This document shows, in pieces, positions 1-51,225 of a stretch of DNA of 64,000 nt. A program made the position numbers and the translations under genes. A model generated the notes under the pieces. That model worked only from the letters and a program-made list of their open reading frames with translations. It was not told the origin of the DNA and did no database searches. Origin of the DNA: Nanobdellota archaeon (lineage in GTDB: Archaea > Nanobdellota > Nanobdellia > Pacearchaeales > GW2011-AR1); the NCBI GenBank assembly GCA_022703705.1, contig JAKLDD010000001.1, positions 2,657-66,656 on the forward strand, written 5' to 3'. The first letter of the stretch is position 1. The number at the start of each line of letters is the position of its first letter.

Positions 1-603
1 AATCCCCCTTTATTGTACATAACATGAATATGCCCTAATGCATAATAATCTGCTTTTGGTAGACGGTCGGGATTTATAGATTCCATTGGAAGACTACCGA
101 CAACTTTATCTATTGTTGTATGTAACATCAAAATTCTAAATAACCCCGGAGAATCATTTAATCTAACCCTTTTCAAATCTGCGATTTCCAATCCCGATTT
201 TTTCCCAGGATATCCATAAATTGCAACATTTCCATAAACAATTGGATTTAAAATAATAAGATTTTCTCTTTCTTCTGCATTAAAAACATTTTTACAAAAT
301 CCCGCCTTCTCTAAAACATCCAAGAAAGTTTTACCGGAAACAGAATAATCATGCGACCCTGCGATAATAAAACAAGGTATATTCGCTTCTTTTAATCTTC
401 TAAATTGTGAAAAGGTTTCCTTTAATATTTCAATTGGGGGATAAGCTGAATCAAATAAATCTCCTGCAAATAAAATAAAGTCGAGCTTTGAGTTTAAACA
501 AATGTCAATTGCTTTTTTAAAAGAATTAAAATTTAAATCCTGCATTTGCTGTTGTTTCCATCCCCCTAAATGAACATCGGCTATATGTGCAAATCTTACC
601 ATT
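1..603 (-). CDS. Mre11/SbcD-family metallophosphoesterase (DNA repair nuclease), 5' part only; apparent +1 frameshift about 25 codons after the start
   Basis: Reverse-strand ATG at 603 gives MVRFAHIADVHLGGWKQQQMQ then stops. The shifted frame continues DLNFNSFKKAIDICLNSKLDFILFAGDLFDSAYPPIEILKETF...ALGHIHVMYNKG, i.e. Mre11 motifs I-II and GHIH, and runs off the window start. The frame break sits at a CCC/GGG run at 538-540. Confidence 0.6.
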
Positions 604-676
604 TTTACATTATTTTTAATAAAAAAGTTTATAACAGCACGAAACTATTCCCATATATAAAATTAATTGTATTAAA

Positions 677-2158
677 ATGAGGTATAATATTCTTATAGGA
701 GGCGAAGCAGGGCAGGGACCCAATATATTGACACAAGTTCTTGGAGAGGGATTAGTTAAAAATGGGAATCACGTTTTTTATTCAAGAAATTATCAATCAT
801 TAATAAGGGGGGGGCACAATTTTAACATATTAACTTTTTCTGAAGAACCTGTATTGAGCAATGATTCAAAGATAGACATATTAGTATGTTTAGATAATAA
901 AACAGAAGAAATTCATAAAAAAAATTTAAAAAAAGAAGGAATAATCCTAAAAGGAAATGATAGCAATATGTATTACGCAGGAAGAATCTTTAAATTATTT
1001 TGTTTGGATTTCAAACTCCTTGAAAATAGATTAAAAGAAATTGGAAATAAATTTAAAGAAAATCTTTCTGAAGCAAAAAAGGGATATGAAGAAGAAACTA
1101 AAACTGTTTGTAAAATAAAAAAGCAGAGTGAAGATCACATATTTCTTAATGGAAATCAGGGCATTTCGGAAGGGGCTGTAAAATCAAATATAAAATTTTA
1201 TTATGCTTATCCAATGACCCCTGCAACACCTATAATGAATGAACTTGCATCTAAAAAAGATGTAAATGTTATTGAACTGGAAAATGAAATTGCTGTTATA
1301 AATGCAGGAATTGGAAGTTCAATTGTAGGAAAAAATGTTATGGTGGGAACGTCTGGAGGGGGATTTGATTTAATGACTGAAGCATTAAGTATGACTGGTG
1401 TTGCTGAAATCCCAATAGTGGTTTATCTTTCTCAAAGGCCAGGTCCGGGTACAGGAGTTGCAACATCTACTTCTCAGGGAGATTTAAATTTAGCGTTAAA
1501 TTTCGGACATGGAGAATTTTTTAGAATAGTTCTTGCACCAGGAGACCCAAAAGAAGCACAAGAATTAACTAATCAGGCATTTTATCTTTCTCAAAAATAT
1601 AAAACTCCTTCAATAATCTTAGGAGATAAACATCTTGCAGAAAGCTTTTATACAATTCACGAAAAATCTTCTTTTATTGAAATAAAAAATAAAACTCCTT
1701 TAACAAGGTATAATAGTTATGAAAAAGATGAATTTGGGAGTGCAACAGAAAATCCAGAAATTATTAAAAAAAATATTGAAAAAAGAAATGCAAAAGCAAA
1801 AGAAATTAAAATAGAAAGTAAAAAATTTCAAAATTATAAATTATTTGGAAAAAAAGATTCAAAAAATTTAATTGTTTCGTGGGGTTCTACAAAAGGAGCG
1901 ATAATTGATTCGATTAAAAATCTAAATTGTGGTTTTCTCCAGATTTTATATTTAGAACCTTTTTCTGAAAAAATAAAAGAGGAAATCTTAAATAAAAATT
2001 TAATTTTAATAGAAAATAATACATCTAGTCCGCTTTCAGAATTAATTGCAAAAAAAACAGGCATATTTATAGATGATAAAAATAAAATATTAAGATATGA
2101 TGGAAATCCCTTTTTTGCGGATGAATTAAAATATGAAATAGAAAAGAGGTTGAAATGA
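677..2158 (+). CDS. 2-oxoacid:ferredoxin oxidoreductase, fused gamma-alpha subunit
   Basis: N-terminal GGEAGQG gamma-subunit motif; alpha-subunit YAYPMTPATPIMNELA and GTSGGGFDLMTEALS motifs. Confidence 0.8.
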   Translation: MRYNILIGGEAGQGPNILTQVLGEGLVKNGNHVFYSRNYQSLIRGGHNFNILTFSEEPVLSNDSKIDILVCLDNKTEEIHKKNLKKEGIILKGNDSNMYYAGRIFKLFCLDFKLLENRLKEIGNKFKENLSEAKKGYEEETKTVCKIKKQSEDHIFLNGNQGISEGAVKSNIKFYYAYPMTPATPIMNELASKKDVNVIELENEIAVINAGIGSSIVGKNVMVGTSGGGFDLMTEALSMTGVAEIPIVVYLSQRPGPGTGVATSTSQGDLNLALNFGHGEFFRIVLAPGDPKEAQELTNQAFYLSQKYKTPSIILGDKHLAESFYTIHEKSSFIEIKNKTPLTRYNSYEKDEFGSATENPEIIKKNIEKRNAKAKEIKIESKKFQNYKLFGKKDSKNLIVSWGSTKGAIIDSIKNLNCGFLQILYLEPFSEKIKEEILNKNLILIENNTSSPLSELIAKKTGIFIDDKNKILRYDGNPFFADELKYEIEKRLK

Positions 2159-3395: not shown

Positions 3396-4334
3396 ATGAT
3401 ATCCGAAATTGCATTATTTACATTAATTTCTCTTACTCCAGCTGAAAAAGGAACTATTAATAATCTTGAAAGAAGGTTGAAAAAAGAAGGACATGATATT
3501 TCAGAGTATATTAATGATTCCCGTTTTCAGATATACAAACCTGAAAAAGGAAAGAAAACAGTTAATTATGCTGACATAAAACAATCCTGGTATATGAGGC
3601 CTGATTCTATTGAAAAATGCGCTGATTTTATTGAAGAATATTATCATAATTTAGAAGTGATTCGTGCTAAATATGAAATCTCTCCAGAGCATATGGTCTC
3701 TCAGCTTCAGCTTGAAACAAGATTGGGGCAATATACGGGGGAAAAACCTCTGATAAATTCTTTTATTTCAATATATTTAAACAACCCAAGAAGAAGAGAA
3801 GAATTTTACAGATACCTCAAGGATTTCCTAGACTTATTTGAAAATAAAACAGATAATATAATCCTTTCAGAAGACATTTTTGAAATTAGAGGATCATGGG
3901 CAGGAGCATATGGTATTGCGCAAGCTATGCCAACCCTAATTAAAAAATACGGAAAAGATACAGATGGAAATGGAGATGGTATGTTTGACCTTATGAATAT
4001 GTTAGATGCAATGGAATTTATGGCAAGACATCTTTGTGATTTAGGATTTGGAAAAAATGCAAGAGCAACACAGGGATATAACAGGGGGGATAAGTTCTAT
4101 CAAAGTGCAATAGATAAGCATAAATTAGCATTAAGTGAAGTTATGAAAGAAAGAAGCAAAATTCCCCCTAAAAAAATAATTTATAATATAAAACCAATAA
4201 TACCAAATATTCAATATCCTCCAAGAACTAATATTCAAGAAACTAAAATCGTTGAAGTTGCACAACAACCTGCCCAAAGACAATTTTTCATAAAGAGAAT
4301 TATTCAAAATAGAAGGAATGGGAGAAGAGGGTAA
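3396..4334 (+). CDS. lytic murein transglycosylase-like protein (SLT_2/MltB family)
   Basis: QLQLETRLGQY (catalytic Glu region) and RGSWAGAYGIAQAMPT match the MltB-family GSWAGAMGQTQFMP signature; basic and Pro-rich C-terminal tail. Confidence 0.6.
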   Translation: MISEIALFTLISLTPAEKGTINNLERRLKKEGHDISEYINDSRFQIYKPEKGKKTVNYADIKQSWYMRPDSIEKCADFIEEYYHNLEVIRAKYEISPEHMVSQLQLETRLGQYTGEKPLINSFISIYLNNPRRREEFYRYLKDFLDLFENKTDNIILSEDIFEIRGSWAGAYGIAQAMPTLIKKYGKDTDGNGDGMFDLMNMLDAMEFMARHLCDLGFGKNARATQGYNRGDKFYQSAIDKHKLALSEVMKERSKIPPKKIIYNIKPIIPNIQYPPRTNIQETKIVEVAQQPAQRQFFIKRIIQNRRNGRRG

Positions 4335-4350
4335 TAAAATTTTAAAAAAA

Positions 4351-4905
4351 TTAAATAATTTTTAATTCCCAGACACACAATCTTTCAAAAAATAATTTTT
4401 CACATCCAATTTCTCTTGCTTTATATCCTAATTTTTCAAAATTTATATCCTCAGATAAACTGCTTGTAATTAAAAAAATTTCTCCATTTTTTTCAAGATA
4501 ATTTCTTGCTTCTTTTAAAAATTTTAAAACAATTTCATTTCCCTTTTTCCCTCCAGTTGTGTTTAATTTTGAATGGGGGGGTTCTCTTAAATCATCAGGT
4601 AAATAAGGCGGATTAAAAATTATTAAATCAAATTTTCCAGAAATATTTTTAAATAAATCAGAATGAATACAATTAAATCCAAGAATATTACAATGATTCA
4701 CTGAAGCCTTATTTATATCAGAGGAAAAAATATTTTCTTTTTTAACTCCTGAGACTTCTGCTGTTTGAAGATGAATTCCACTACCTGCTCCAATTTCTAA
4801 CAATTTTAAATTTATATTTTTATTTAAAAGCAAAGGGATTTGCTCTTTTAAAATTCTTGACATTAAATAAGAATCCTCTGCAGGCACGTATATACTTTTA
4901 TGCAT
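4351..4905 (-). CDS. HemK/Mtq2-family SAM-dependent methyltransferase (release-factor glutamine N5-MTase-like)
   Basis: LEIGAGSG motif I and DLIIFNPPY motif IV. Confidence 0.65.
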   Translation of the reverse strand: MHKSIYVPAEDSYLMSRILKEQIPLLLNKNINLKLLEIGAGSGIHLQTAEVSGVKKENIFSSDINKASVNHCNILGFNCIHSDLFKNISGKFDLIIFNPPYLPDDLREPPHSKLNTTGGKKGNEIVLKFLKEARNYLEKNGEIFLITSSLSEDINFEKLGYKAREIGCEKLFFERLCVWELKII

Positions 4906-4906
4906 T

Positions 4907-5809
4907 TTATGCTAAATTCCAAGCAGTAAATAATTCAATTAATTGGTCTTTAAACACAAATACTGAAATTAATGCTCCTAAGAAAAAGATAAATAATAAT
5001 ATAAGCAAAATAATTATTCCTTGTCCTGCTTGATTTGAAGGATCCTTAGATCCGTAATTAGAAACCCTTTGTATTGTTGATGCTGGCTTTCTTTCTGCCT
5101 CTAAGTTTATAATTTCTATTTTTGAAGGGAGCCTTATATTTCTCAATGTAGATATTGCTGATTCTATTCTATTATTTAAATCTTCAACAGATTCATCTGG
5201 TTCCCTGGAAGTTGAAACTATCTGAACAGATTTGGGTTGGGGTTTAGGTTGTGGTTTAGGTTCTGGTTTAATCTCTGGTTTTTCAATTTCTTCAATAAAT
5301 TCTGGCTCAGGTTCTGGTTTAGGTTCCGGTTTAGGTTGAGATATAGGTTTTAGTTTAGTCTTTGGTTTTTCAATTTCTTTAACAGGCTTTATTTCTTGTT
5401 CTTCTTTGGGTTTTGATTTAAACTTAGATTTTAATCTAGAAAAAAATCCTGGTTTTTTTTCTTTCTCTTCTTTTTTCTTGATTTCTTTTTTAATTTCGGG
5501 TTGTTCTTCATATTCAGGTGAAATCTTTGGTTTAAGATATGTTTCTGGAACAACTGGTTTTTCAGAATATTCAAGAGATTTATCTTGAACTTCTTTAGCT
5601 ACAATTGATTTTTCTATTTCTTGTGGAATTTTACTTGGATTTATTACTTTTTCGGCTTGCCCCCCAGTTTGTTTATATAATTCTCTAGCTGCCCCTTCTA
5701 TCTCCTGTTTATTATATCCTGCATTATAAAAAGAAAACATTGCACTTTGAAGAGATTCGCCTCTTGAAAGAGCCTCTATTAATCCATGAAAAATTGTTTC
5801 GTTTATCAT
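4907..5809 (-). CDS. tail-anchored membrane protein with a long Lys/Glu/Pro-rich (PEPK-repeat) linker
   Basis: Short N-terminal globular region, then EKPKTKLKPISQPKPEPKPEPEPE... low-complexity repeats and a single C-terminal TM segment. Confidence 0.5.
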   Translation of the reverse strand: MINETIFHGLIEALSRGESLQSAMFSFYNAGYNKQEIEGAARELYKQTGGQAEKVINPSKIPQEIEKSIVAKEVQDKSLEYSEKPVVPETYLKPKISPEYEEQPEIKKEIKKKEEKEKKPGFFSRLKSKFKSKPKEEQEIKPVKEIEKPKTKLKPISQPKPEPKPEPEPEFIEEIEKPEIKPEPKPQPKPQPKSVQIVSTSREPDESVEDLNNRIESAISTLRNIRLPSKIEIINLEAERKPASTIQRVSNYGSKDPSNQAGQGIIILLILLFIFFLGALISVFVFKDQLIELFTAWNLA

Positions 5810-5810
5810 T

Positions 5811-7154
5811 TTATAGTTTTATTACCTTTCCATTCGAAGAAAGATGAGCATTTTCTTGAAATTTATATCCTAATTCGCAGGATAATTCTATAAGAGGAGT
5901 TTCCTGTTGCAAAGAACCGTGTGCAGGAACTATGTGTTGTGGTTTAAGCATATCAATTAAATCTCTTAAATCCTCTCTTCCACCATGTCCTGAAACATGA
6001 ACATCTGTCTGCAATCTTACTCCCTGTTTTCTTAACTTACTATCCATTTTTTCACGAGCATTTATATTTACTGCAACTGGTATTATGCTTGATGAAAATA
6101 TAAGGTTATCTCCCATTTTAAACTTAAAGGGTGTTTCCCCTTTCACTATTCTATCCAGAATAGAACCCGGTTCTCCTTGATGTCCAGTACAAACTATTAA
6201 ATATTTTCCACGATTTCCTTCGAGTTTTTTCAAAAAAGAATTTATCTGCTTTCTAAATCTCATTATCTCAACCTTATTCCTAAACGGACATTGATTAACT
6301 TTTATTGCTGCCTCTACATATTTGTTTAAACTTCTACCAAGAAAAACAATTTTTCTATTTGTTTTTTGTCCAAATTCAACTATGCTCTTTAATCTTGCAA
6401 TATGGGAAGAAAAAGTAGTGATAAAAAGCGCAGAGTTCTTATCTCTTACTGTCCCAAGAGCATCTTCCACTAAATTTCTTGCAATTCGTTCACTTGCTGT
6501 TCTTCTATCTGTATCTGAATAAAGAGCGTCAACAACCAAACATTTAATTTTCATTTTTCCTAATTCTTTAAGTCGTTTATAATTTGTTGGAAGACCAATT
6601 ATTGGATGATTATCAAATTTAAAATCAAGAGCATAAAAAAAGATTCCTTCTTTTGAATGCCAAGCAATAAAAAAGCACTGAAGAGTTGAATGGGTTGTAT
6701 TTATAAATTCCATTTTTAAATTTCCATTTTTCCCCTTAATTAAATAAGTTGTATTTTCATTAACAACTTTCTTCTTGTTTCTAATTACAATTTTTTCATC
6801 TTTTAAAATTGAATCAAAAACAGCCATGGTAAATGGGCTTGCTATAATTTCTGCCTTCGGATATCTGTGAGCTAAATAAGGCAACCCCCCAACATGATCT
6901 AAATGTGCATGCCCAATTATAATTGCGCGAACCTTATCTGTCCATCCAAGCTTATCCAAAATTAAATCATCTGGAATTGCTTTTATTCCTCTTAACATTT
7001 TTTCAGTATATTGCTGCTGACTTTCATGTTCCTGAATTTCAACAACGGGTGGAAGAAAAATACCTGCATCAAAAATAATTACATCGTCTTCTACTTTTAC
7101 AGCAGTCATGTTTTTTCCTACCTCTTCATAACCCCCAATTGTACAAATTTCCAT
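5811..7154 (-). CDS. rnj: archaeal RNase J (metallo-beta-lactamase/beta-CASP ribonuclease)
   Basis: N-terminal IGGYEEVGKNM and GHAHLDHVGGLPYL motifs; about 447 aa with no KH domains. Confidence 0.8.
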   Translation of the reverse strand: MEICTIGGYEEVGKNMTAVKVEDDVIIFDAGIFLPPVVEIQEHESQQQYTEKMLRGIKAIPDDLILDKLGWTDKVRAIIIGHAHLDHVGGLPYLAHRYPKAEIIASPFTMAVFDSILKDEKIVIRNKKKVVNENTTYLIKGKNGNLKMEFINTTHSTLQCFFIAWHSKEGIFFYALDFKFDNHPIIGLPTNYKRLKELGKMKIKCLVVDALYSDTDRRTASERIARNLVEDALGTVRDKNSALFITTFSSHIARLKSIVEFGQKTNRKIVFLGRSLNKYVEAAIKVNQCPFRNKVEIMRFRKQINSFLKKLEGNRGKYLIVCTGHQGEPGSILDRIVKGETPFKFKMGDNLIFSSSIIPVAVNINAREKMDSKLRKQGVRLQTDVHVSGHGGREDLRDLIDMLKPQHIVPAHGSLQQETPLIELSCELGYKFQENAHLSSNGKVIKL

Positions 7155-19139: not shown

Positions 19140-19417
19140 ATAATTTTTTCCCCTCGATGATCTTCTATTTTATTATCGAAAACCTCCGCGAAAGGTTTAT
19201 AAAGCTCATTTTTTTGGTGTATTCTGTTAATTAAGATGAGTGCCTTAACAATATACAAAAATTCTAAGGTATGAAGTATGTAGAAGCAGTCATCTATTTG
19301 TAATTTTTATCAACCAATTTTTATGTTCAAAGCCGATAGTTAGGAATAATGTGTGAAGTGATTTCTTTTCTTATATAGAAATCGCGTAAATTCGATTTAT
19401 AGTCGATATTTATCTAA

Positions 19418-20862
19418 ATCCAGTTGATCCTGCTGGCGGCTGCGGCTCTCTGGTTTGCGTTTAGACATGCAAGTCTTTTTGTTTCTTCGGAAGTGAAAGG
19501 CGAACTGCTCAGTAACACGTAGCTAACCTGCCCTTAAGTCAAGGATACTCTCGGGAAACTGAGGTTAATACTCGATAGGAGATGTACCCTGGAATGATTC
19601 ATCTCTCAAACTCGTGCTTAAGGATGGGGCTGCGGCGGATTAGGTTGTTGGCGGGGTAATGGCCCACCAAGCCAATGATCCGTAAGGGCTCTTAGCGGAG
19701 AGGCCCTGAGAGGGAATCTTAGACACTATTCCCAGCCCTACGGGGTGCAGCAGTTAGGAATCTTCTGCAATGCGCGCAAGCGTGACAGATTGAGCCAGAG
19801 TGCTTTTCAATTGAAAAGCTTTTGTCAAATGTAAAAAGTTTGACGAATAAGGACTGGGTAAGACGAGTGCCAGCCGCCGCGGTAATACTCGCGGTCCAAG
19901 TCGCAGCCATCTTTATTGGGTATAAAACATCCGTAGCTTGCTTAATAAGTTTCTTGTGAAATTTCATATCTCAAATATGGAGCGTGCAAGAAGTACTGTT
20001 GAGCTAGAGACTGGAAGACGTAAGAAGTACGTTTGGAGTAGCGGTAAAATGTGTTAATCCCAGACGGACTAACAACAGCGAAGGCATCTTACGAGGACAG
20101 TTCTGACAGTAAGGGATGAAGGCTAGGGGCGCGAAACGGATTAGATACCCGTGTAGTCCTAGCAGTAAACACTGCACACTAAACATTAGTACCTCCTCGA
20201 GAGGTATTAGTGCTGAAGAGAAGTCGAAGAGTGTGCTACCTGGGAAGTATAGTCGCAAGGCCGAAACTTAAAGGAATTGGCGGGGAGACACTACAACGGG
20301 TGACGCGTGCGGTTCAATTAGATTCTACACCGTGAACCTCACCAGGAGCGACAGCAGAATGAAGGTCAGTCTAAAGGGCTTACCTGACACGCTGAGAGGA
20401 GTTGCATGGCCGACGTCAGCCTGTGCCGTGAGGTGACCTGTTAAATCAGGTAACAGGCGAGACCCACATACATATTTACTATTTGTACAATATGTAGATT
20501 GCCGTGGTAACATGGATGAAAGTGTGGGCTACGTTAGGTGAGTACAGCCTGAATCCCCTGGGCAACACGCGCGCGTCAACGGTGGATACAACGGGATGCA
20601 ACTCTGTAAAGAGAAGCCAATCCCTTAAAGTCCATCTCAGTCTAGATTGAGGTTTGAAACCCAGCCTCATGACACCGGAATCCGTAGTAATCGTTTGTTA
20701 TCAGCGAACGGTGAATATGTCACGGTCTCTTGCACACACTGCCCGTCAAACCAACCGAGTTATGTTATGGTGAAACTTTTCGAAGGAGAACCTTGACATG
20801 ACAAGGTAGGTTAAGTCGTCACAAGGTAACTGTAGGGGAACCTGCAGTTGGATTACCTCCTA
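19418..20862 (+). rRNA. rrs: 16S ribosomal RNA
   Basis: 5' ATCCAGTTGATCCTGCTGGC; internal GTGCCAGCCGCCGCGGTAATAC; 3' GGATTACCTCC anti-SD end. Confidence 0.9.
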
Positions 20863-20967
20863 TATTTATTATTAAAATTGGCAAATTCAAATTGACTTTC
20901 TACATACTCATCTTATTACAGAAAACTTAAAAAACCCATGCGGGCTAAAATAAATGTATGCGGTTTT

Positions 20968-21003
20968 CATAATTTCCGTCGGAGGCAATGAGAGAAATTA
21001 TCT
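20968..21003 (+). other. ITS hairpin with a CGTCGGAGGCAATGAGAG loop
   Basis: ATAATTTC...GAAATTAT inverted repeat preceded by GGTTTT; a paralogous hairpin lies at 21530-21563. Confidence 0.4.
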
Positions 21004-21053
21004 TTCGGTGTCTAGAGGGAAGCTTACAAAAAGAAACCGCAAGGTGTCTTTTG

Positions 21054-21124
21054 GGGCTCTTAGTCCAACGGTAGAACACTTGCCTTGCACGCATGAGATC
21101 CGGGTTCGACTCCCGGAGAGTCCA
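21054..21124 (+). tRNA. tRNA-Ala (anticodon TGC) in the 16S-23S spacer
   Basis: Cloverleaf folded by hand: acceptor GGGCTCT/AGAGTCC, T-arm CCGGG-TTCGACT-CCCGG, anticodon loop CTTGCAC; CCA not encoded. Confidence 0.85.
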
Positions 21125-21529
21125 TTCAAACAAAAGTTTTCTGTATAAGATTAATTAACTGACAATAATCAAACAAACACAACGGAGAAAAACAAAATGA
21201 CAAAAACAATGTTAGAAAAAATCAAAGGAATGAATATTCCAGTTGGAGCTCCAATTGAAATTACTAATAAAGATGGAAATAAGGAATTAAGATATTTTGG
21301 GGGGTTTACAAGTCATGATGATACCATTTGGGCTGGATTAAAAAATAATAGATATAATCCACTAAAACTATCAAATTTAGAAAATATAGATAGGCGATAT
21401 TACAAAAAATAAATCACAATCACAAATCATATTCACATCACGTGAAAAATCAGCTGATAAAATATCAGCACTGGTTCCGAAGCAACTTTCGGAATCAATT
21501 TGAGAATAAGCAAAACAATTCAAGGTTTT

Positions 21530-21563
21530 GCGATTTCCTTCGGAGGCAACTCCAGAAATCGCT
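21530..21563 (+). other. ITS hairpin with a CTTCGGAGGCAACTCCA loop
   Basis: GCGATTTC...GAAATCGC inverted repeat preceded by GGTTTT; paralogue of the hairpin at 20968-21003. Confidence 0.4.
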
Positions 21564-21684
21564 GTTCAGCGATTAGAGGAAAATCGAAAAAAACCAGCAG
21601 GTTGTTTTCATATTCAATGAAATAAGTAACAGAAAATCCCACTTAATAATAATGAAAATTATAATTTAATTTTCAGGCATACTA

Positions 21685-24483
<2,799 letters not shown>

Positions 24484-24585
24484 CATTTTTAGTATACCTG
24501 AAAATTGGATTTTCTGTTACTTATTTATTTGATTTTTATTTCTGATATAATAATACTTAAATACTATTTTTTTATTTTATATATC

Positions 24586-30047: not shown

Positions 30048-32744
30048 TTAATTTTTTCCATTAGGCTTATCTTTATATTTAAAAAATTTATAGATTTCTC
30101 CAAATACAAGAACAGAAGAACTAATTAAAATAACTAAACCCATCTCCTTAAAAGACAACGGAACAAATTCGAAGACTCTTGCTAAAAAAGGTATGTAAAG
30201 AACACACAAAAGTGCAATTACAGATGCTGATAATGCATAAATTACCCATTTATTTGAAAGAATTTTTATTTTAAAAATTGATTTATGCAGGGAACGCATA
30301 TTAAAAACATTAAAAAATTGAAAAAATGACATAGATACAAATGCAATTGTTCTTGCTTTATCTACCCCCTGATGAAGAAAATTATTAAACAAAGGTATTG
30401 TTCCAACAGCCATTAAACCTGCCATTAAAAGTAAGAAAAATACAAGTTCTTTATTTAGTATTTTTTCTTCTTTTTTCCTTGGAGGCTCATTTAAAACATC
30501 ATGATGTCCGGGCTCCATTGCCAAAGAGATTCCAGTAAATGCATCTGTTACAAGATTCAAGTAAAGCAATTGAATTGGAAGCATAGGGAGTGGGAGGCCC
30601 AAGGATAATGAAGAAATAATTGTAACATCTTCAGCAACATTAGTTGTTACAAGATAGAAGCTTGTTTGTCTTATATTTTGAAATACAACTCTTCCCTCTT
30701 CTATAGCATTTACAATAGAAGAAAAATTATCATCTGCTAAAACAATTTCAGAAGAATCTCTTGCAACATCTGTACCAATAACACCCATTGAAATTCCAAT
30801 GTCTGCTTTTTTAAGTGCAAGTGCATCATTAACCCCATCTCCAGTCATTGCAACAATTTCTCCTTGTTCCTGAAGAACTTCAACAATTTTTATCTTCATT
30901 TTAGGAGTCATTCTAGCAAAAATATTTGAATCTCTAACCGCATTTTTAAATTCTGTTTCATTCATCTTTCTCAATTCTTCTTCTGTAAATGCAGGAATTT
31001 TTCCCATATCCAACCCAATTTCTTTAGCAATCGCGATTGCTGTTTCTCTATGATCTCCTGTCTGCATTATAATCCTTATACCTGCGTTTTTTGCTTTTTG
31101 AACTGCTTCCTTAACTTCTTTTCTTGGAGGATCTTTCATACCAATTAAGCCAAGAAAAATCATTCCCCCAACAAGCTTTTCAGAAACAGAAGTTGTTCCT
31201 CTTGGAACATCTCTATAAGAAAATGCCAAAATTCTCATTCCTTGCTTTGCCAAATTAACTGCTTTTGTAAGCAGGATTTTTTTATCTTTATCTGTAAGAG
31301 TTATTTTTTTATCTTTATCCAAGTAATAAGAAGAGCGTTTCAAAATAGCTTCAAATGCTCCTACTGAAATTAAACTTTTTTTACCGCTTTTATTTTCTAC
31401 TAATGTTGCTCTGAATTTAAATTCAGAATTGAATGGCAAATCATCCAAGACCTTTTCAGGCATATTTTCTTTTTTTAAACCTGCTTTTTTAGCCAAAACT
31501 AAAAGAGAAACTTCTGTTGGATCTCCAACTATTTCATATTTTCCATCTTCTTTTATCAAAAGATTTCCTTTATTGCAAAGCGCAGATGAACCCAATAATC
31601 TTTTCAAAATTGGAAAAGATAGTGGATTTAATTCTTTGTTTTTCTGATAAAACTTTCCAATTGGTTCCCATCCATCTCCGCTCACTTCAAACTCTCCTTC
31701 AGAAGTTATTATTTTCTGCACTGTAATTGAATTTTTAGTTAAAGTTCCTGTTTTATCTGTTGCAATAATTGTAGCAACACCCAAAGTCTCAACTGCAGGT
31801 AGATGTCTTATGATTGCTTTTCTCTTAGCCATTCTTCTTGCACCAATTGCAAGAACAATAATTAACACAGCAGGCAAACCTTCTGGGATTCCTGAAACTA
31901 AAGAAGCAACTGTAAATAAAAACATATCAATAAAAGCCATTCCCCTTATGAAAAAACCAATTATGAATGTTAAAAGAGCTCCAATAACAGCAACAACTCC
32001 CATTTGCATTGATAGTTGAGCCACTTTTTTACTAAAATGTGTTTTTGGTTGAACAATTTCCTGGATGGATTTTGCAACTTGCCCAATTTGAGTTTTATTT
32101 GCAGTAAAAACCACAATTGCTTTTGCTTCTCCAGATACAACCATGGTACCCATAAAAACCATATTTGTCCTATCTGTTATAGAAGTGCTCTCTGGAAGAA
32201 TTTTTATATTCTTTTCTTGGGGGAATGATTCTCCTGTTAATGAAGCTTCTTGTGTTTTAAGATTATTAATTTCGATTAAACGAGCATCTGCAGGAACTTT
32301 ATCTCCCTCTTCTAAAAAAATAACATCTCCTGGGACAATTTGTGAAGAAGGAACTTTTATTAATTCACCATCCCTATAAACTTTTGCATAAGAAACAATC
32401 ATGGTTTTAAGGAGATTTATTGCTTTCTCTGCTTTTCTTTCCTGAAAAAAACCAACAATTGCATTTATAATTACAACAACAAAAATAACAATTGCATCAA
32501 CTAAATGATTAATTAAAATAGAAATTATTGTTGCAAAAATAAGAATATATACTAATGGGCTATGAAACTGCTTAAAAAACTTAAAAATTAAAGGTTTTTT
32601 CTTTTTTTCTGAAATTACATTCAAACCCCTCTCAGCAAGAACTCTTTTATATCTTTCAGTTGTTAACCCTTTTTCAGAGGAATTTAGTTCTTTAAAAATC
32701 TGGGATAGAGATTTTGAATGATGATTATTAGTCACCTCAACCAT
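30048..32744 (-). CDS. P-type cation-transporting ATPase (type II, Ca2+-ATPase-like)
   Basis: DKTGTLT phosphorylation site, TGDGVNDALALKKADIGISMG hinge, PEGLPAV in TM4; 898 aa. Confidence 0.9.
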   Translation of the reverse strand: MVEVTNNHHSKSLSQIFKELNSSEKGLTTERYKRVLAERGLNVISEKKKKPLIFKFFKQFHSPLVYILIFATIISILINHLVDAIVIFVVVIINAIVGFFQERKAEKAINLLKTMIVSYAKVYRDGELIKVPSSQIVPGDVIFLEEGDKVPADARLIEINNLKTQEASLTGESFPQEKNIKILPESTSITDRTNMVFMGTMVVSGEAKAIVVFTANKTQIGQVAKSIQEIVQPKTHFSKKVAQLSMQMGVVAVIGALLTFIIGFFIRGMAFIDMFLFTVASLVSGIPEGLPAVLIIVLAIGARRMAKRKAIIRHLPAVETLGVATIIATDKTGTLTKNSITVQKIITSEGEFEVSGDGWEPIGKFYQKNKELNPLSFPILKRLLGSSALCNKGNLLIKEDGKYEIVGDPTEVSLLVLAKKAGLKKENMPEKVLDDLPFNSEFKFRATLVENKSGKKSLISVGAFEAILKRSSYYLDKDKKITLTDKDKKILLTKAVNLAKQGMRILAFSYRDVPRGTTSVSEKLVGGMIFLGLIGMKDPPRKEVKEAVQKAKNAGIRIIMQTGDHRETAIAIAKEIGLDMGKIPAFTEEELRKMNETEFKNAVRDSNIFARMTPKMKIKIVEVLQEQGEIVAMTGDGVNDALALKKADIGISMGVIGTDVARDSSEIVLADDNFSSIVNAIEEGRVVFQNIRQTSFYLVTTNVAEDVTIISSLSLGLPLPMLPIQLLYLNLVTDAFTGISLAMEPGHHDVLNEPPRKKEEKILNKELVFFLLLMAGLMAVGTIPLFNNFLHQGVDKARTIAFVSMSFFQFFNVFNMRSLHKSIFKIKILSNKWVIYALSASVIALLCVLYIPFLARVFEFVPLSFKEMGLVILISSSVLVFGEIYKFFKYKDKPNGKN

Positions 32745-48150: not shown

Positions 48151-49746
48151 ATGAAAACCCTTGAACGAGTAATGGAAGAAAGTGAAAGAATGTACTGGGC
48201 AGATTCTATTGCGTCTAATTTGATTCGTTCGAATCCAAAGCAAAAAAAATTTACGTGTGCTGCTGGAATTAGTCCATCCGGAATAATACATATTGGAAAT
48301 TTTAGAGATATCATAACGTCTGATTTAGTTTGTCGTTCTTTAAGGGATAAAGGGTATGAAGCAGAATTAATCTTTTCTTGGGATGAATACGATAGATTAA
48401 GAAAGATTCCAAAAGGAGTGCCAGAGAAATTTAGTAAATATTTAGGAATGCCCCTAGCTGAAGTTCCTGATCCAGATAAATGTCATAAATCTTATGCTAA
48501 GCATTTTCAGGCACCATTTGAAGAAGCAATACCCCAACTTATAACATCAATAAAATTTTTATATCAAGCAGAAAAATACAAAAATAATGAATATTATGAG
48601 GGAATTAAAACAGCAATGCAAAAAAGAAAGCAGATAGCAGAGATATTGGCGGAATTCAAGACTCAGGGCATGACAGAAAAAGAAATGGAAGAATATTACC
48701 CCTTACAGGTTTACTGTAGAAAATGCAATAAAGGAACAACTACAAAAATAATCGATTATGATGGAGAGGATAAGGTAATTTACAAGTGCGAATGTGGCAA
48801 TAAAGAAACTGTAGATATTTCAAAAGAGAATATAGGAAAGCTCGATTGGAAGGTTGACTGGCCTATGAGATGGAAACATGAAGGAGTAAGTTTTGAACCG
48901 GGAGGGGAAGATCATGCAACCCCCGGAGGTAGTTTTGATGTTGCAAGTAGAATTGCTAAAAAAATTTATGGTATCGAACCCCCTTATTTTCAAGGATATG
49001 GCTTCGTTGGGGTAGAAGGAGCTTCTAAGATGTCTGGATCAAAGGGAACAGGAATTGCTCCAAAAGATTTACTTGAAATCTATGAGCCAGAGCTATTAAG
49101 ATGGTTATTCACAAGAGTTAATCCTATGAAAGTATTAACACTATTTTTTGATTCTCAGATAATAAGACAGTATGATGAATTTGATAGAGAAGTTATAAAT
49201 TATTATGAAAACAAACTTCAATCAACTGAAAAAAGAGCCCTAGAACTTGCTACTGTAAATCCCAAAAAGCCTTTGGTCAAGGAAAGAGTTCCGTTCAGAC
49301 AGGCTGGTTCATTCGGACAAGTCGCTCAAGGAAATTTCAAAGAACTTAAAAGTATTTATAAAAGAATAGGAGAAAAATATTCGGATGAGATCTTAAAACA
49401 GAGATTAGTAAAATCTCAAAATTGGATAGATAAATTTGCTCCAGAACTAAAAATTAATGTAAGAGAAATTCCAAACGATAATTATTACAAAAAACTAACA
49501 AAAAAAGAGAAAGAACAAATAGATAAATTTAAAGAAGGGTTCGAGAAACACTGGAATTTGGAAGATCTTACAACTTTTGTATATTCGGTCCCAAAAAAAC
49601 CTGAAATGACTGAAAATGAAAAGAAGATAGAACAAAGAAATTTCTTTAAAAATGTTTATCAGATGCTTATAGATGCAGACACTGGCCCAAGATTGCCAAC
49701 ATTTTTACTTGCATTGGGAAAAGAAAAAGTAAAAAAGCTGTTATAG
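48151..49746 (+). CDS. lysK: lysyl-tRNA synthetase, class I
   Basis: GIIHIGNFRD (HIGH variant), Cys-rich insertion CRKCNKG...CECGNKE, KMSGSKG (KMSKS). Confidence 0.9.
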   Translation: MKTLERVMEESERMYWADSIASNLIRSNPKQKKFTCAAGISPSGIIHIGNFRDIITSDLVCRSLRDKGYEAELIFSWDEYDRLRKIPKGVPEKFSKYLGMPLAEVPDPDKCHKSYAKHFQAPFEEAIPQLITSIKFLYQAEKYKNNEYYEGIKTAMQKRKQIAEILAEFKTQGMTEKEMEEYYPLQVYCRKCNKGTTTKIIDYDGEDKVIYKCECGNKETVDISKENIGKLDWKVDWPMRWKHEGVSFEPGGEDHATPGGSFDVASRIAKKIYGIEPPYFQGYGFVGVEGASKMSGSKGTGIAPKDLLEIYEPELLRWLFTRVNPMKVLTLFFDSQIIRQYDEFDREVINYYENKLQSTEKRALELATVNPKKPLVKERVPFRQAGSFGQVAQGNFKELKSIYKRIGEKYSDEILKQRLVKSQNWIDKFAPELKINVREIPNDNYYKKLTKKEKEQIDKFKEGFEKHWNLEDLTTFVYSVPKKPEMTENEKKIEQRNFFKNVYQMLIDADTGPRLPTFLLALGKEKVKKLL

Positions 49747-49795
49747 AGATAAAAAGACTGCACATTCAAAGTAGATGCAGAATATATTATAACCT

Positions 49796-49870
49796 GGACC
49801 GGTAGCTCAGCAAGGTAGAGCGCTAAGGTTTTTATTTTGGAGGAGAGATGTTCAAATCATCTCCGGTCCA
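49796..49870 (+). tRNA. tRNA-Lys (anticodon TTT), slightly irregular anticodon arm
   Basis: Hand fold: acceptor GGACCGG/CCGGTCC, D-arm GCTC..GAGC, T-arm AGATG-TTCAAAT-CATCT, anticodon region CTAAG-GTTTTTAT-TTTGG. The loop is either 7 nt with U37 or 8 nt. Confidence 0.6.
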
Positions 49871-49875
49871 TCATA

Positions 49876-51225
49876 ATGAACAAGAAATTCAAATATAAGA
49901 TAGAAGAGTATGCTGAGAAAGCCATAGAACAAGCAAAAAAAATTGGAGAGCCTGTTACTTGCAGATGTGGTGAAACTCCTGGAGGAACAAAGCATATAGA
50001 AAATTTTAATGATAACATCAGAAGTTACTTTATCTATCTTGCAGTAAAAGAAAAAGGTTATCCTGCGAGGCATATACAAACTAGAGATAATATGGACCCA
50101 TTTAGAAAACTTCCATCGGGGTTCTTTGATTTAAATAAAAAATGGCACACATCTTCTTTAAAATTAATTAAAGAGTATAATAAATATGTTGGAACCCCTC
50201 TTTATTTTATCCCAGACCCGCTGGGATGTTGTGAAAATTATGCTGAACATTTCAGAAAAATCTATGAAAGCGAATGTGATTTGATGGGATTAAAAGACAC
50301 CCAGTACTTTAGCACTGAAGACCTATATAGAACAGGAAAATTTAATCCGTATCTTAAAAAAATATTTGAAAAAGCAGAATTAGCAAGAGAGATAGATTTG
50401 AATATAGAGAATACAAAGCCCAAAGATTATATTCCCGTGTGAGTTATATGTGAAAAATGTAAAAAGATAACTGGCAGAATAAAACATATAAATCTTAAAA
50501 AAGAAACTGTAGAATATGTCTGCACTGGAAGAAATTTGACTTCAAAGTATCCTGCAAGGGGGTGTGGAAACACTGGAACTATTGATTGGAAGAATGGAAA
50601 TACGAAAATGGATTGGGAATTTGAATGGCCTGCTCAAATGCTAATATTTAAAACAACCTTAGAACCTTTTGGAAAAGAACATTTTATTGGTTCTTGGCCT
50701 TTTGCAAAACAAGTAATACTTAAGATATATAAAAAAGAGCTCCCATTAGTGTTTTTTTATGAATATTTTCTGGTTAATAAGCAAAAAATGGCGACTAGAC
50801 ATGGTAATGTAACTCCCCTTTCTACTTTATTAAAAGTCCTTGAACCAGAAGTTATCCGTTACTTATATACTAAGCGCCCAAGAAAACAAAGAAACCTTAC
50901 TCCTCAAAATATAATTAACTTAGTTAATGAATTTGATTCTGCTGAAAAAATCTGGTTTAATTTAAAGAAGGCAAAAAATGAAAAAGAGTTTGAAAAAATA
51001 AAGAAAAATTATGAGTTTGCATTCTTAAAAAATGTTCCAAAAAAATTTCCAAATAGAATTTCTTATCCAAGATTGATTAAACTTTTAAATAGATTTTCTA
51101 ACAATAAAGTAAAAGATATTGTTTCAAGAGAAAAAAACTTGGAAGAAATAGATTATAGCTTAAAAAGAATTGAATTAATAAAAAATTGGATAAAACTATT
51201 CTCTTCACAAAGTTTTAAAAAATAA
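49876..51225 (+). pseudogene. degenerate class I LysRS paralogue whose frame continues through one in-frame TGA (50440-50442)
   Basis: VTCRCGETPGGTKHIENFND vs FTCAAGISPSGIIHIGNFRD; KMDWEFEWPAQM vs KLDWKVDWPMRW; LEPFGKEHFIGSWPF vs FEPGGEDHATPGGSF; KMATRHG replaces KMSGSKG. ORFs 49837-50442 and 50536-51225 share a frame, and homology runs across the stop. Confidence 0.55.

Follow-up and report, generated by a model that had tools for sequence, protein, structure and literature searches.

Bacillus cereus carries a pseudo-tRNA, tRNAOther, that stands outside translation and can be lysylated in vitro, in a host that has two lysyl-tRNA synthetase (LysRS) enzymes. tRNAOther bears an ordinary Trp anticodon, lies at the flank of a genomic island, and is only poorly charged (PMC3399842, PMC2916919). 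In the PylRS/tRNAPyl pair, recognition is independent of the anticodon (PMC9499178). GluQRS (YadB) and PoxA/EpmA are truncated aminoacyl-tRNA synthetase (aaRS) paralogues without an anticodon-binding domain, which have kept the adenylate-forming core and pass the amino acid to nonstandard acceptors; the 2022 review that covers them lists no class I LysRS paralogue (PMC9437257). Here we describe an accessory class I LysRS gene, and a tRNA-derived gene directly upstream of it that we call tRNA*, in a 64,000-nucleotide stretch of DNA from a Nanobdellota archaeon (GenBank assembly GCA_022703705.1, contig JAKLDD010000001.1, positions 2,657 to 66,656; hereafter, the window). We consider it likely that the two belong, with the housekeeping LysRS gene beside them, to a three-gene module in which the synthetase would be blind to the anticodon and tRNA* would not decode, and that this module was knocked out recently in the window strain, where the accessory gene would be a young pseudogene.

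The accessory LysRS can be compared with each of these systems and with its own enzyme class. It is predicted to share the fold of class I LysRS (LysRS-I; Pyrococcus horikoshii structure 1IRX, families TIGR00467 and PF01921), with a template modeling (TM) score of 0.79, and its family has the same HIGN and KMxxxxGN loops, Zn-knuckle cysteines, and conserved core columns as that class. Unlike other LysRS-I, most accessory members have no PF19269 segment, and they coexist with a housekeeping LysRS and are tied to a tRNA without a usable anticodon loop. The papers on tRNAOther do not describe it as linked to the LysRS gene (PMC3399842, PMC2916919), whereas in every locus tRNA* is found directly upstream of the enzyme that presumably goes with it; also unlike tRNAOther, it is derived from tRNA-Lys and has a hypervariable anticodon arm. 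The placement of the tRNA gene directly upstream of its presumed synthetase recalls pylT-pylS. However, tRNAPyl has a functional CUA anticodon that decodes UAG, and PylRS is a class II enzyme, whereas a class I enzyme stands beside tRNA*, the loop of which is unable to decode, and lysine itself is presumably the amino acid used. Like GluQRS and PoxA/EpmA, the accessory LysRS is, in most members, a synthetase paralogue without an anticodon-binding domain, but those enzymes act on the tRNA-Asp wobble base or on elongation factor P and have no private tRNA gene. In none of these precedents is a class I LysRS joined both to a private tRNA-Lys derivative whose anticodon arm is free-running and, by fixed linkage, to a housekeeping LysRS, and our full-text literature searches found no description of a pairing between an accessory LysRS and a nondecoding tRNA.

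Results

Three genes in a row in the window

The first of the three genes (48151-49746, plus strand) encodes an intact housekeeping class I LysRS of 531 amino acids. It is of the Pyrococcus type and full length, including the C-terminal region. It matched TIGR00467 with 461.1 bits (model positions 1 to 509 of 515; cutoff, 147.55) and PF01921 with 394.7 bits, and it has the motifs HIGN and KMSGSKG. The protein is 97% identical to the copy in a sister strain, and the ratio of nonsynonymous to synonymous substitution (dN/dS) between them is 0.048. The second gene, tRNA* (49796-49870, plus strand), is an RNA gene that appears to derive from tRNA-Lys(UUU) and has an anticodon arm of 18 nucleotides (nt). 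It was recognized both by Rfam RF00005 and by a covariance model of its own family, R1. The third, the accessory LysRS gene (49876-51225, plus strand), has its ATG at 49876, 5 bases after the end of tRNA*, and its final stop codon at 51223-51225, and a single TGA interrupts the frame.

An initial annotation of this DNA had described an intact class I LysRS, a tRNA gene, and a second LysRS-I homologue, and all three are where it had placed them. It had also noted that the second homologue is split into two open reading frames (ORFs) that are in one frame with only a TGA between them, and that LysRS homology runs across the stop. This was borne out as well. When read through, the accessory LysRS matched PF01921 with 244.7 bits (cutoff, 27) and TIGR00467 with 191.8 bits (cutoff, 147.55), and it is 29% identical to the upstream LysRS. 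The TTG start at 49837 of the first ORF overlaps tRNA*, and the ATG at 49876 is therefore the real start.

With the read-through protein as the query, we found about 20 homologues without an interruption (444 to 462 amino acids; about 55 to 82% identity) and deeper relatives of 535 to 565 amino acids. Below, L numbers denote retrieved contigs or loci, and P numbers denote homologous proteins. P0043, the intact protein of the sister strain, is encoded on contig L046.

The accessory LysRS family

A motif table and a neighbor-joining (NJ) tree separated LysRS-I into two large subfamilies. One is Pyrococcus-like (1IRX), includes the upstream gene of the window, and has the motifs GNFR[DE], GCH, DWPMR, and KMSGSKG. 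The other includes the LysRS annotated in Methanocella, Halobacteria, Micrarchaeota, and Aenigmarchaeota and has the motifs GNLND, FGCC, FEWPAQ, EPFGKDH, and either KMSTRHGN or KMSASKGN. The window accessory LysRS nested in the second subfamily (NJ bootstrap, 100) and formed one clade with P0020 and P0021 (NJ bootstrap, 100). It is a C-terminally truncated short form of this Methanocella/Halobacteria type. Its KMSKS-equivalent loop, KMATRHG (50785-50805, plus strand), had been taken for a decayed KMSKS motif. Our motif table does not support that idea: the loop is the normal form in this clade, the great majority of the tRNA*-linked members have KMATRHGN, and KMSTRHGN is found in the housekeeping LysRS of Methanocella (P0078) and Halobacteria (P0092).

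We then used 28 housekeeping LysRS-I sequences from both subfamilies to define 48 columns with at least 93% conservation. The tRNA*-linked clade has kept 35 of them. Four of the 13 that it has not kept are in the truncated C terminus, and the others are mostly conservative changes. Equivalents of HIGH, the KMSKS loop, W218, H240, and Y268 (1IRX numbering) are all retained; in the 2002 structure paper, the last three are reported to be lysine-pocket residues. In an AlphaFold 2 model of the close homologue P0001 (pLDDT, 88.4; pTM, 0.88), the top Foldseek match was 1IRX (E = 4e-28; TM score, 0.78 to 0.79). The anticodon-binding domain, PF19269, is at about residues 460 to 553 in the long forms P0024, P0012, and P0078. 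The short forms, which are the proteins of 444 to 462 amino acids, end at about residue 445 to 450 and have no PF19269 segment.

In most loci, the accessory LysRS is as conserved as its housekeeping neighbor or more so. Together, the motifs and the tree indicate that the accessory LysRS belongs to a bona fide LysRS-I subfamily. The family appears to be a working type of LysRS-I, and lysine activation and charging are predicted from its conserved core columns. The initial annotation had proposed a degenerate pseudo-synthetase in which catalysis is probably lost. The copy in the window strain is inactivated (see below), but the description does not fit the family, which has kept HIGN and the catalytic-core columns and is under strong purifying selection (dN/dS, 0.078).

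The anticodon arm of tRNA*

The RF00005 match of tRNA* (47.6 bits) has a single additional base in the anticodon arm, and ARAGORN reported the gene as 'tRNA-???'. The family model R1 gave it 93.6 bits. The unusual anticodon arm remarked on in the initial annotation is a genuine feature. A scan of the whole window at the Rfam gathering threshold missed the gene, despite its 47.6 bits when scored alone (threshold, 29). Speed filters drop it from that scan, and such genes may be routinely missed.

In 16 tRNA* orthologues, the acceptor (7 bp), D (4 bp), and T (5 bp) stems were 100% paired. Double-sided changes were present at 15 of 21 pairs; shuffles averaged 8.4, and slid controls did not exceed 8. 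The anticodon arm behaved differently. Its length ranged from 15 to 22 nt across the orthologues, with loops of 4 to 8 nt that include UUUUUA, UUAA, UUUUA, UUUU, UUUAU, UUAAUUG, GUAUUAU, GUAUUAA, GUGUUUAA, and UGUUCCAU. This comparison indicates that the arms of tRNA* are structurally constrained except for an apparently unconstrained anticodon arm, and with an arm that varies so freely in length and loop size, the gene can no longer be called an ordinary tRNA-Lys(UUU), as it had been.

The window arm, CUAAGG-UUUUUA-UUUUGG, could be drawn with 6 bp and a 6-nt loop or with 5 bp and an 8-nt loop. The sixth pair, which closes the UUUUUA loop, covaries (G.U, A-U, or G-C) in the seven UUUUUA members, which favors a reading of the arm as 6 bp with a 6-nt loop. 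We rejected an 8-nt loop, or a quadruplet decoder, as a general model, given this covariation and loops of 4 to 8 nt in the orthologues. Nor does the window tRNA* have a 5-bp stem with a 7-nt loop of the form U33-UUU-A37. Arms this aberrant cannot present a standard anticodon, which argues that tRNA* is not a decoding tRNA-Lys.

The tRNA* model was also applied to other tRNAs. It gave 83.7 bits to a Thermoprotei-type tRNA-Lys(UUU) on L021, within the family range of 73 to 97 bits, and this supports the descent of tRNA* from tRNA-Lys(UUU). A tRNA-Lys(CUU) received 51 bits and the window tRNA-Phe 40 bits. The variable loop of tRNA* is AGGAG (49840-49844), and in the sub-clade of the window, G48 is opposite G15, a nonstandard Levitt pair; G15-C48 is retained in the tRNA* genes of L016, L017, L018, and L032.

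Conservation of the gene arrangement

In all 16 loci with upstream sequence, tRNA* was found upstream of the accessory LysRS gene on the same strand, at a distance of 5 to 40 nt (mostly 5 to 12 nt). The named relatives are a Woesearchaeota metagenome-assembled genome (MAG) and a Nanoarchaeia MAG. Three clade members have kept the C-terminal domain (L008, 546 amino acids; L015, 542 amino acids; and L020, 555 amino acids), and their tRNA* loops are 7 to 8 nt. The short-form enzymes pair with aberrant tRNA* arms.

A housekeeping LysRS gene adjoins the module wherever the flanking sequence reaches far enough. In the window, L001, L046, L007, L011, L012, L014/L033, L015, L018, and L020, it is a Pyrococcus-type class I LysRS. 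In L017 (5140-6768, minus strand) and L035 (12354-13967, minus strand), it is a divergent class I LysRS that is 41% identical to that of the window and does not have the Zn-knuckle cysteines (PISLYSRFT). In L008, the Nanoarchaeia MAG, it is a bacterial-type class II LysRS (TIGR00499, 513 bits). The divergent neighbors in L017 and L035 suggest that the housekeeping gene has been replaced repeatedly beside a stable accessory pair. All-against-all clustering of ORFs from 26 loci revealed no constant neighbor other than the housekeeping LysRS.

Two substitutions in the window allele

The in-frame TGA (50440-50442, plus strand) occupies the position of a conserved Trp codon, W189. The site aligns with a Trp (PVWVICE) that is invariant in the close clade of accessory LysRS, and codon comparison found TGG there in L046, L001, L011, L012, and L007. 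A second difference is in the HIGN (HIGH) signature, which reads HIEN in the window allele (49993-50004). Its Glu codon, GAA (49999-50001, plus strand), replaces the GGA (Gly) codon found in L046, L001, L011, L012, L007, and L037, and the Glu aligns with a Gly shared by all 30 aligned sequences. Both lesions are single G-to-A transitions (TGG to TGA at W189 and GGA to GAA, giving G42E), and the window accessory LysRS departs from its clade at only 2 invariant columns. The frame of the catalytic domain is interrupted in the window copy, and its product stops at 188 amino acids.

The sister protein P0043 (452 amino acids) is uninterrupted, is 95% identical to the window copy, and has both HIGN and the Trp; its contig is syntenic with the window. 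The TGA is conserved in no relative, and all close homologues in the codon comparison have the sense codon TGG. This agrees with one branch of the either/or in the initial annotation, a freshly inactivated gene. The change from HIGH to HIEN that it had also seen is present in the window allele, but it does not represent decay of the family, the rest of which has HIGN. We conclude that HIEN is a strain-specific change, a strain-level polymorphism, and that the TGA appears to be an ordinary nonsense mutation and not a recoding site. We also considered a functional split enzyme and rejected it: the first in-frame restart, TTG at 50536, omits three invariant Zn-knuckle cysteines, and the N-terminal piece has HIEN.

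Eleven contigs encode the exact 188-amino-acid truncated product, for which both Glu42 and the stop are needed. We retrieved seven of these contigs, from seven different European Nucleotide Archive (ENA) and Joint Genome Institute (JGI) assemblies that differ in project and assembler. Six are 100% identical to the window in nucleotide sequence over 1.4 to 5.4 kb. The other, L043, is 99.8% identical, with 5 mismatches clustered at the contig end within the upstream LysRS gene. All seven match the window exactly across the part of the accessory LysRS region that they cover. Thus, the same allele is found in at least seven independent assemblies, and it must be real; a sequencing error, which the initial annotation had named as a possible undoing of its proposal, does not explain it. 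A Logan contig, L037 (SRR29243427), is 99.97% identical to the window over 3049 nt and ends before the TGA site. Its sole difference is a G at window position 50000 (L037 position 4453), which gives HIGN.

Comparison of the accessory LysRS genes of the window and the sister contig L046 gave a dS of 0.30 and a dN/dS of 0.078. When changes were polarized with four outgroups, there were four specific to the window (G42E, E149D, W189stop, and G362N) and three specific to the sister. The low dN/dS and the nearly equal numbers of polarized changes indicate that purifying selection acted until very recently and that decay has hardly begun. Relaxed selection on the window copy was rejected on the same figures. 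The window accessory LysRS is a real allele that lost its function recently, whereas all relatives have the gene intact and under constraint. As a separate observation, the allele has taken two loss-of-function hits and hardly any other change, which could be a hint that the loss was selected for.

Neighboring genes and other features

An Amidohydro_2 gene (PF04909) is directly 3' of the accessory LysRS gene in four lineages: L011 (3420-4277), L012 (3929-4921), L014 (5329-6174, corresponding to L033 11350-12195), and L035 (11370-12374). It overlaps the accessory LysRS stop codon in L014/L033 and L035. The window, L001, and L046 have none. We considered Amidohydro_2 as a linked acceptor enzyme and rejected it: it is present in four lineages only, and the L014 and L035 copies share only 22% identity. 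Radical-SAM genes recur near module loci, with none in the window. In L008, a B12-binding-type radical SAM gene comes after tRNA* and the long-form LysRS, and the class II LysRS gene comes next (3526-5202, plus strand, and 5199-6671, minus strand). L035 has a normal tRNA-Lys(CUU) 7 kb from tRNA*. In L021, the long-form LysRS P0020, which is labeled Thermoprotei, is encoded at 154-1776 (plus strand), and the normal tRNA-Lys(UUU) is about 250 nt downstream on the opposite strand (2027-2100, minus strand). This might represent an ancestral linkage of enzyme and tRNA.

The spacer between tRNA* and the ATG is only 5 to 12 nt in the window (49871-49875), L001, L007, L011, L012, L014, L015, and L018. 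Most of these spacers have no Shine-Dalgarno motif; L017 has GGAGGT. Processing of tRNA* by RNase Z would leave a nearly leaderless accessory LysRS mRNA. Between the upstream LysRS stop codon and tRNA* (window 49750-49790), there is a short inverted repeat, CTGCA...TGCAG, and we did not see an archaeal TATA box in a good position in that interval. In L001, TTTAAATA is about 28 nt upstream of tRNA*, and transcription units may differ among strains. The window has a G+C content of 30.6% and contains a complete archaeal rRNA operon (19417-24498) with 16S rRNA (19417-20861), tRNA-Ala(UGC) (21054-21124), and 23S rRNA (21676-24498) genes, which is usable for taxonomic placement.

Discussion

A module of a housekeeping LysRS, tRNA*, and a second class I LysRS appears to be conserved in DPANN archaea of the Woesearchaeota/Nanoarchaeia type. 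Our comparisons show its anatomy and conservation, the covariation in tRNA*, and the retained catalytic core of the accessory enzyme. In this module, tRNA* has retained its acceptor, D, and T arms and lost a usable anticodon loop, and the accessory LysRS has lost its C-terminal anticodon-binding domain in most lineages. The accessory enzyme may load tRNA* with lysine or something closely analogous, and would read no anticodon in doing so, and the charged tRNA* may then serve a purpose other than codon reading. Both the charging of tRNA* and its nonribosomal use are what we infer from the conserved pair. In the window strain, two G-to-A transitions would have knocked out the accessory enzyme very recently, and the upstream LysRS would carry translation. 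We suggest, tentatively and knowing that it may well prove wrong, that a natural anticodon-independent class I LysRS:tRNA pair supplies lysyl-RNA, or a lysine derivative made on RNA, to a nonribosomal process, in which case the window lesions would be a natural knockout.

Several points weigh against this proposal. The module loci have no linked acceptor enzyme of the Fem, MprF, or CDPS-like kind. The only normal tRNA-Lys seen near tRNA* was the tRNA-Lys(CUU) of L035. A widespread clonal strain has kept the natural knockout, and the module is thus dispensable in at least some conditions. Finally, near-cognate decoding of UGA by tRNA-Trp would give the ancestral residue, and some full-length protein may be made at a low level.

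The lesions in the window allele might also be explained without a loss of function. If they were assembly or sequencing errors, the true sequence would have TGG and GGA and the gene would be intact. It is true that both changes are single G-to-A transitions and that the nearly identical L037 has G at 50000, but the agreement among independent assemblies, and the truncated product on 11 contigs, make this very improbable. An in-frame TGA with homology on both sides is also what genome-wide reassignment of TGA (to Trp or Gly) or selenocysteine (Sec) insertion would produce, and we regard either as so improbable that it can be set aside. The initial annotation had itself doubted genome-wide recoding, with good reason: 7 of the 34 window ORFs of at least 200 amino acids end in TGA, and those 34 ORFs contain 104 TGG codons. 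A long in-frame continuation past a TGA was found only for the accessory LysRS, apart from a spurious ORF (31651-32019) that overlaps a 902-amino-acid gene on the opposite strand, so that no real window gene has a further in-frame TGA. The homologous residue is Trp and neither Cys nor Sec. ARAGORN and Rfam found no tRNA-Sec, and two Rfam E-value scans of the TGA and the region downstream gave no match to a Sec insertion sequence (SECIS) or any other family.

Leaky or programmed UGA readthrough, in which a near-cognate tRNA-Trp or a dedicated mechanism would yield some full-length enzyme, has more in its favor and is still distinctly unlikely. UGA is the leakiest stop codon, and here it is exactly at a Trp codon, where near-cognate decoding would restore the wild-type residue. 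Furthermore, the remaining ORF is unbroken, and the population that carries the allele is widespread. However, an intact downstream frame is expected anyway of a very young lesion, the TGA is in no relative, including the 95% identical sister, and window genes use TGA as a normal terminator. There is also neither conserved nor significant structure 3' of the in-frame TGA; a 136-nt segment that spans it and continues 3' folded no better than shuffles (z = -0.84). That result and the Rfam scans leave no sign of the SECIS-like hairpin that might have been sought downstream of 50442, and with an invariant Trp codon replaced in this strain alone, the programmed readthrough or Sec insertion that had been offered as alternatives to recent inactivation are not supported. 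The same allele also has Glu in place of a Gly at a HIGH position that is invariant in the aligned LysRS-I, and a readthrough product is therefore probably inactive: G42E would still be expected to cripple it. A different objection concerns the pair itself. The short LysRS and tRNA* might be functionless, as a slowly decaying remnant of a displaced LysRS and tRNA-Lys, or tRNA* might be a mere RNase P/Z processing signal. We think this unlikely, although a remnant would account for the degeneration of both the anticodon arm and the anticodon-binding domain, for housekeeping neighbors of three kinds, which suggest repeated displacement, and for a knockout without apparent cost in the window strain. 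The long-form LysRS of L021, beside a normal tRNA-Lys(UUU), would be a plausible ancestral state, and the short spacers, mostly without a Shine-Dalgarno motif, would suit a processing signal. But neutral decay would not keep 55 to 83% identity, the core columns, and a dN/dS of 0.08 in the enzyme, nor would it give compensatory changes in three tRNA stems, and a processing signal would have no need of a conserved D arm and a tRNA-Lys-like sequence. We judge readthrough and a functionless remnant to be the only alternatives still open to a conserved module that was recently knocked out in the window strain.

As a recoding candidate, the window finding is ordinary, a young nonsense mutation, and the KMSKS motif that had seemed degenerate is normal in a large subfamily of working LysRS enzymes. 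It is the conserved pair of an accessory LysRS and a nondecoding tRNA in DPANN archaea that merits follow-up, and the broken allele and the intact sister strain provide a ready-made comparison. Synthetase and tRNA seem to have lost anticodon recognition together, with both under purifying selection beside a housekeeping LysRS. If the pair is active, it would offer a testable model of recognition elements that degenerate together (long forms with 7- to 8-nt loops and short forms with aberrant arms), and it might yield an anticodon-blind class I pair for genetic-code engineering. It would also be a rare natural aaRS:tRNA pair that no longer serves decoding and has been kept for something else, in minimal genomes in which each retained gene needs a reason.

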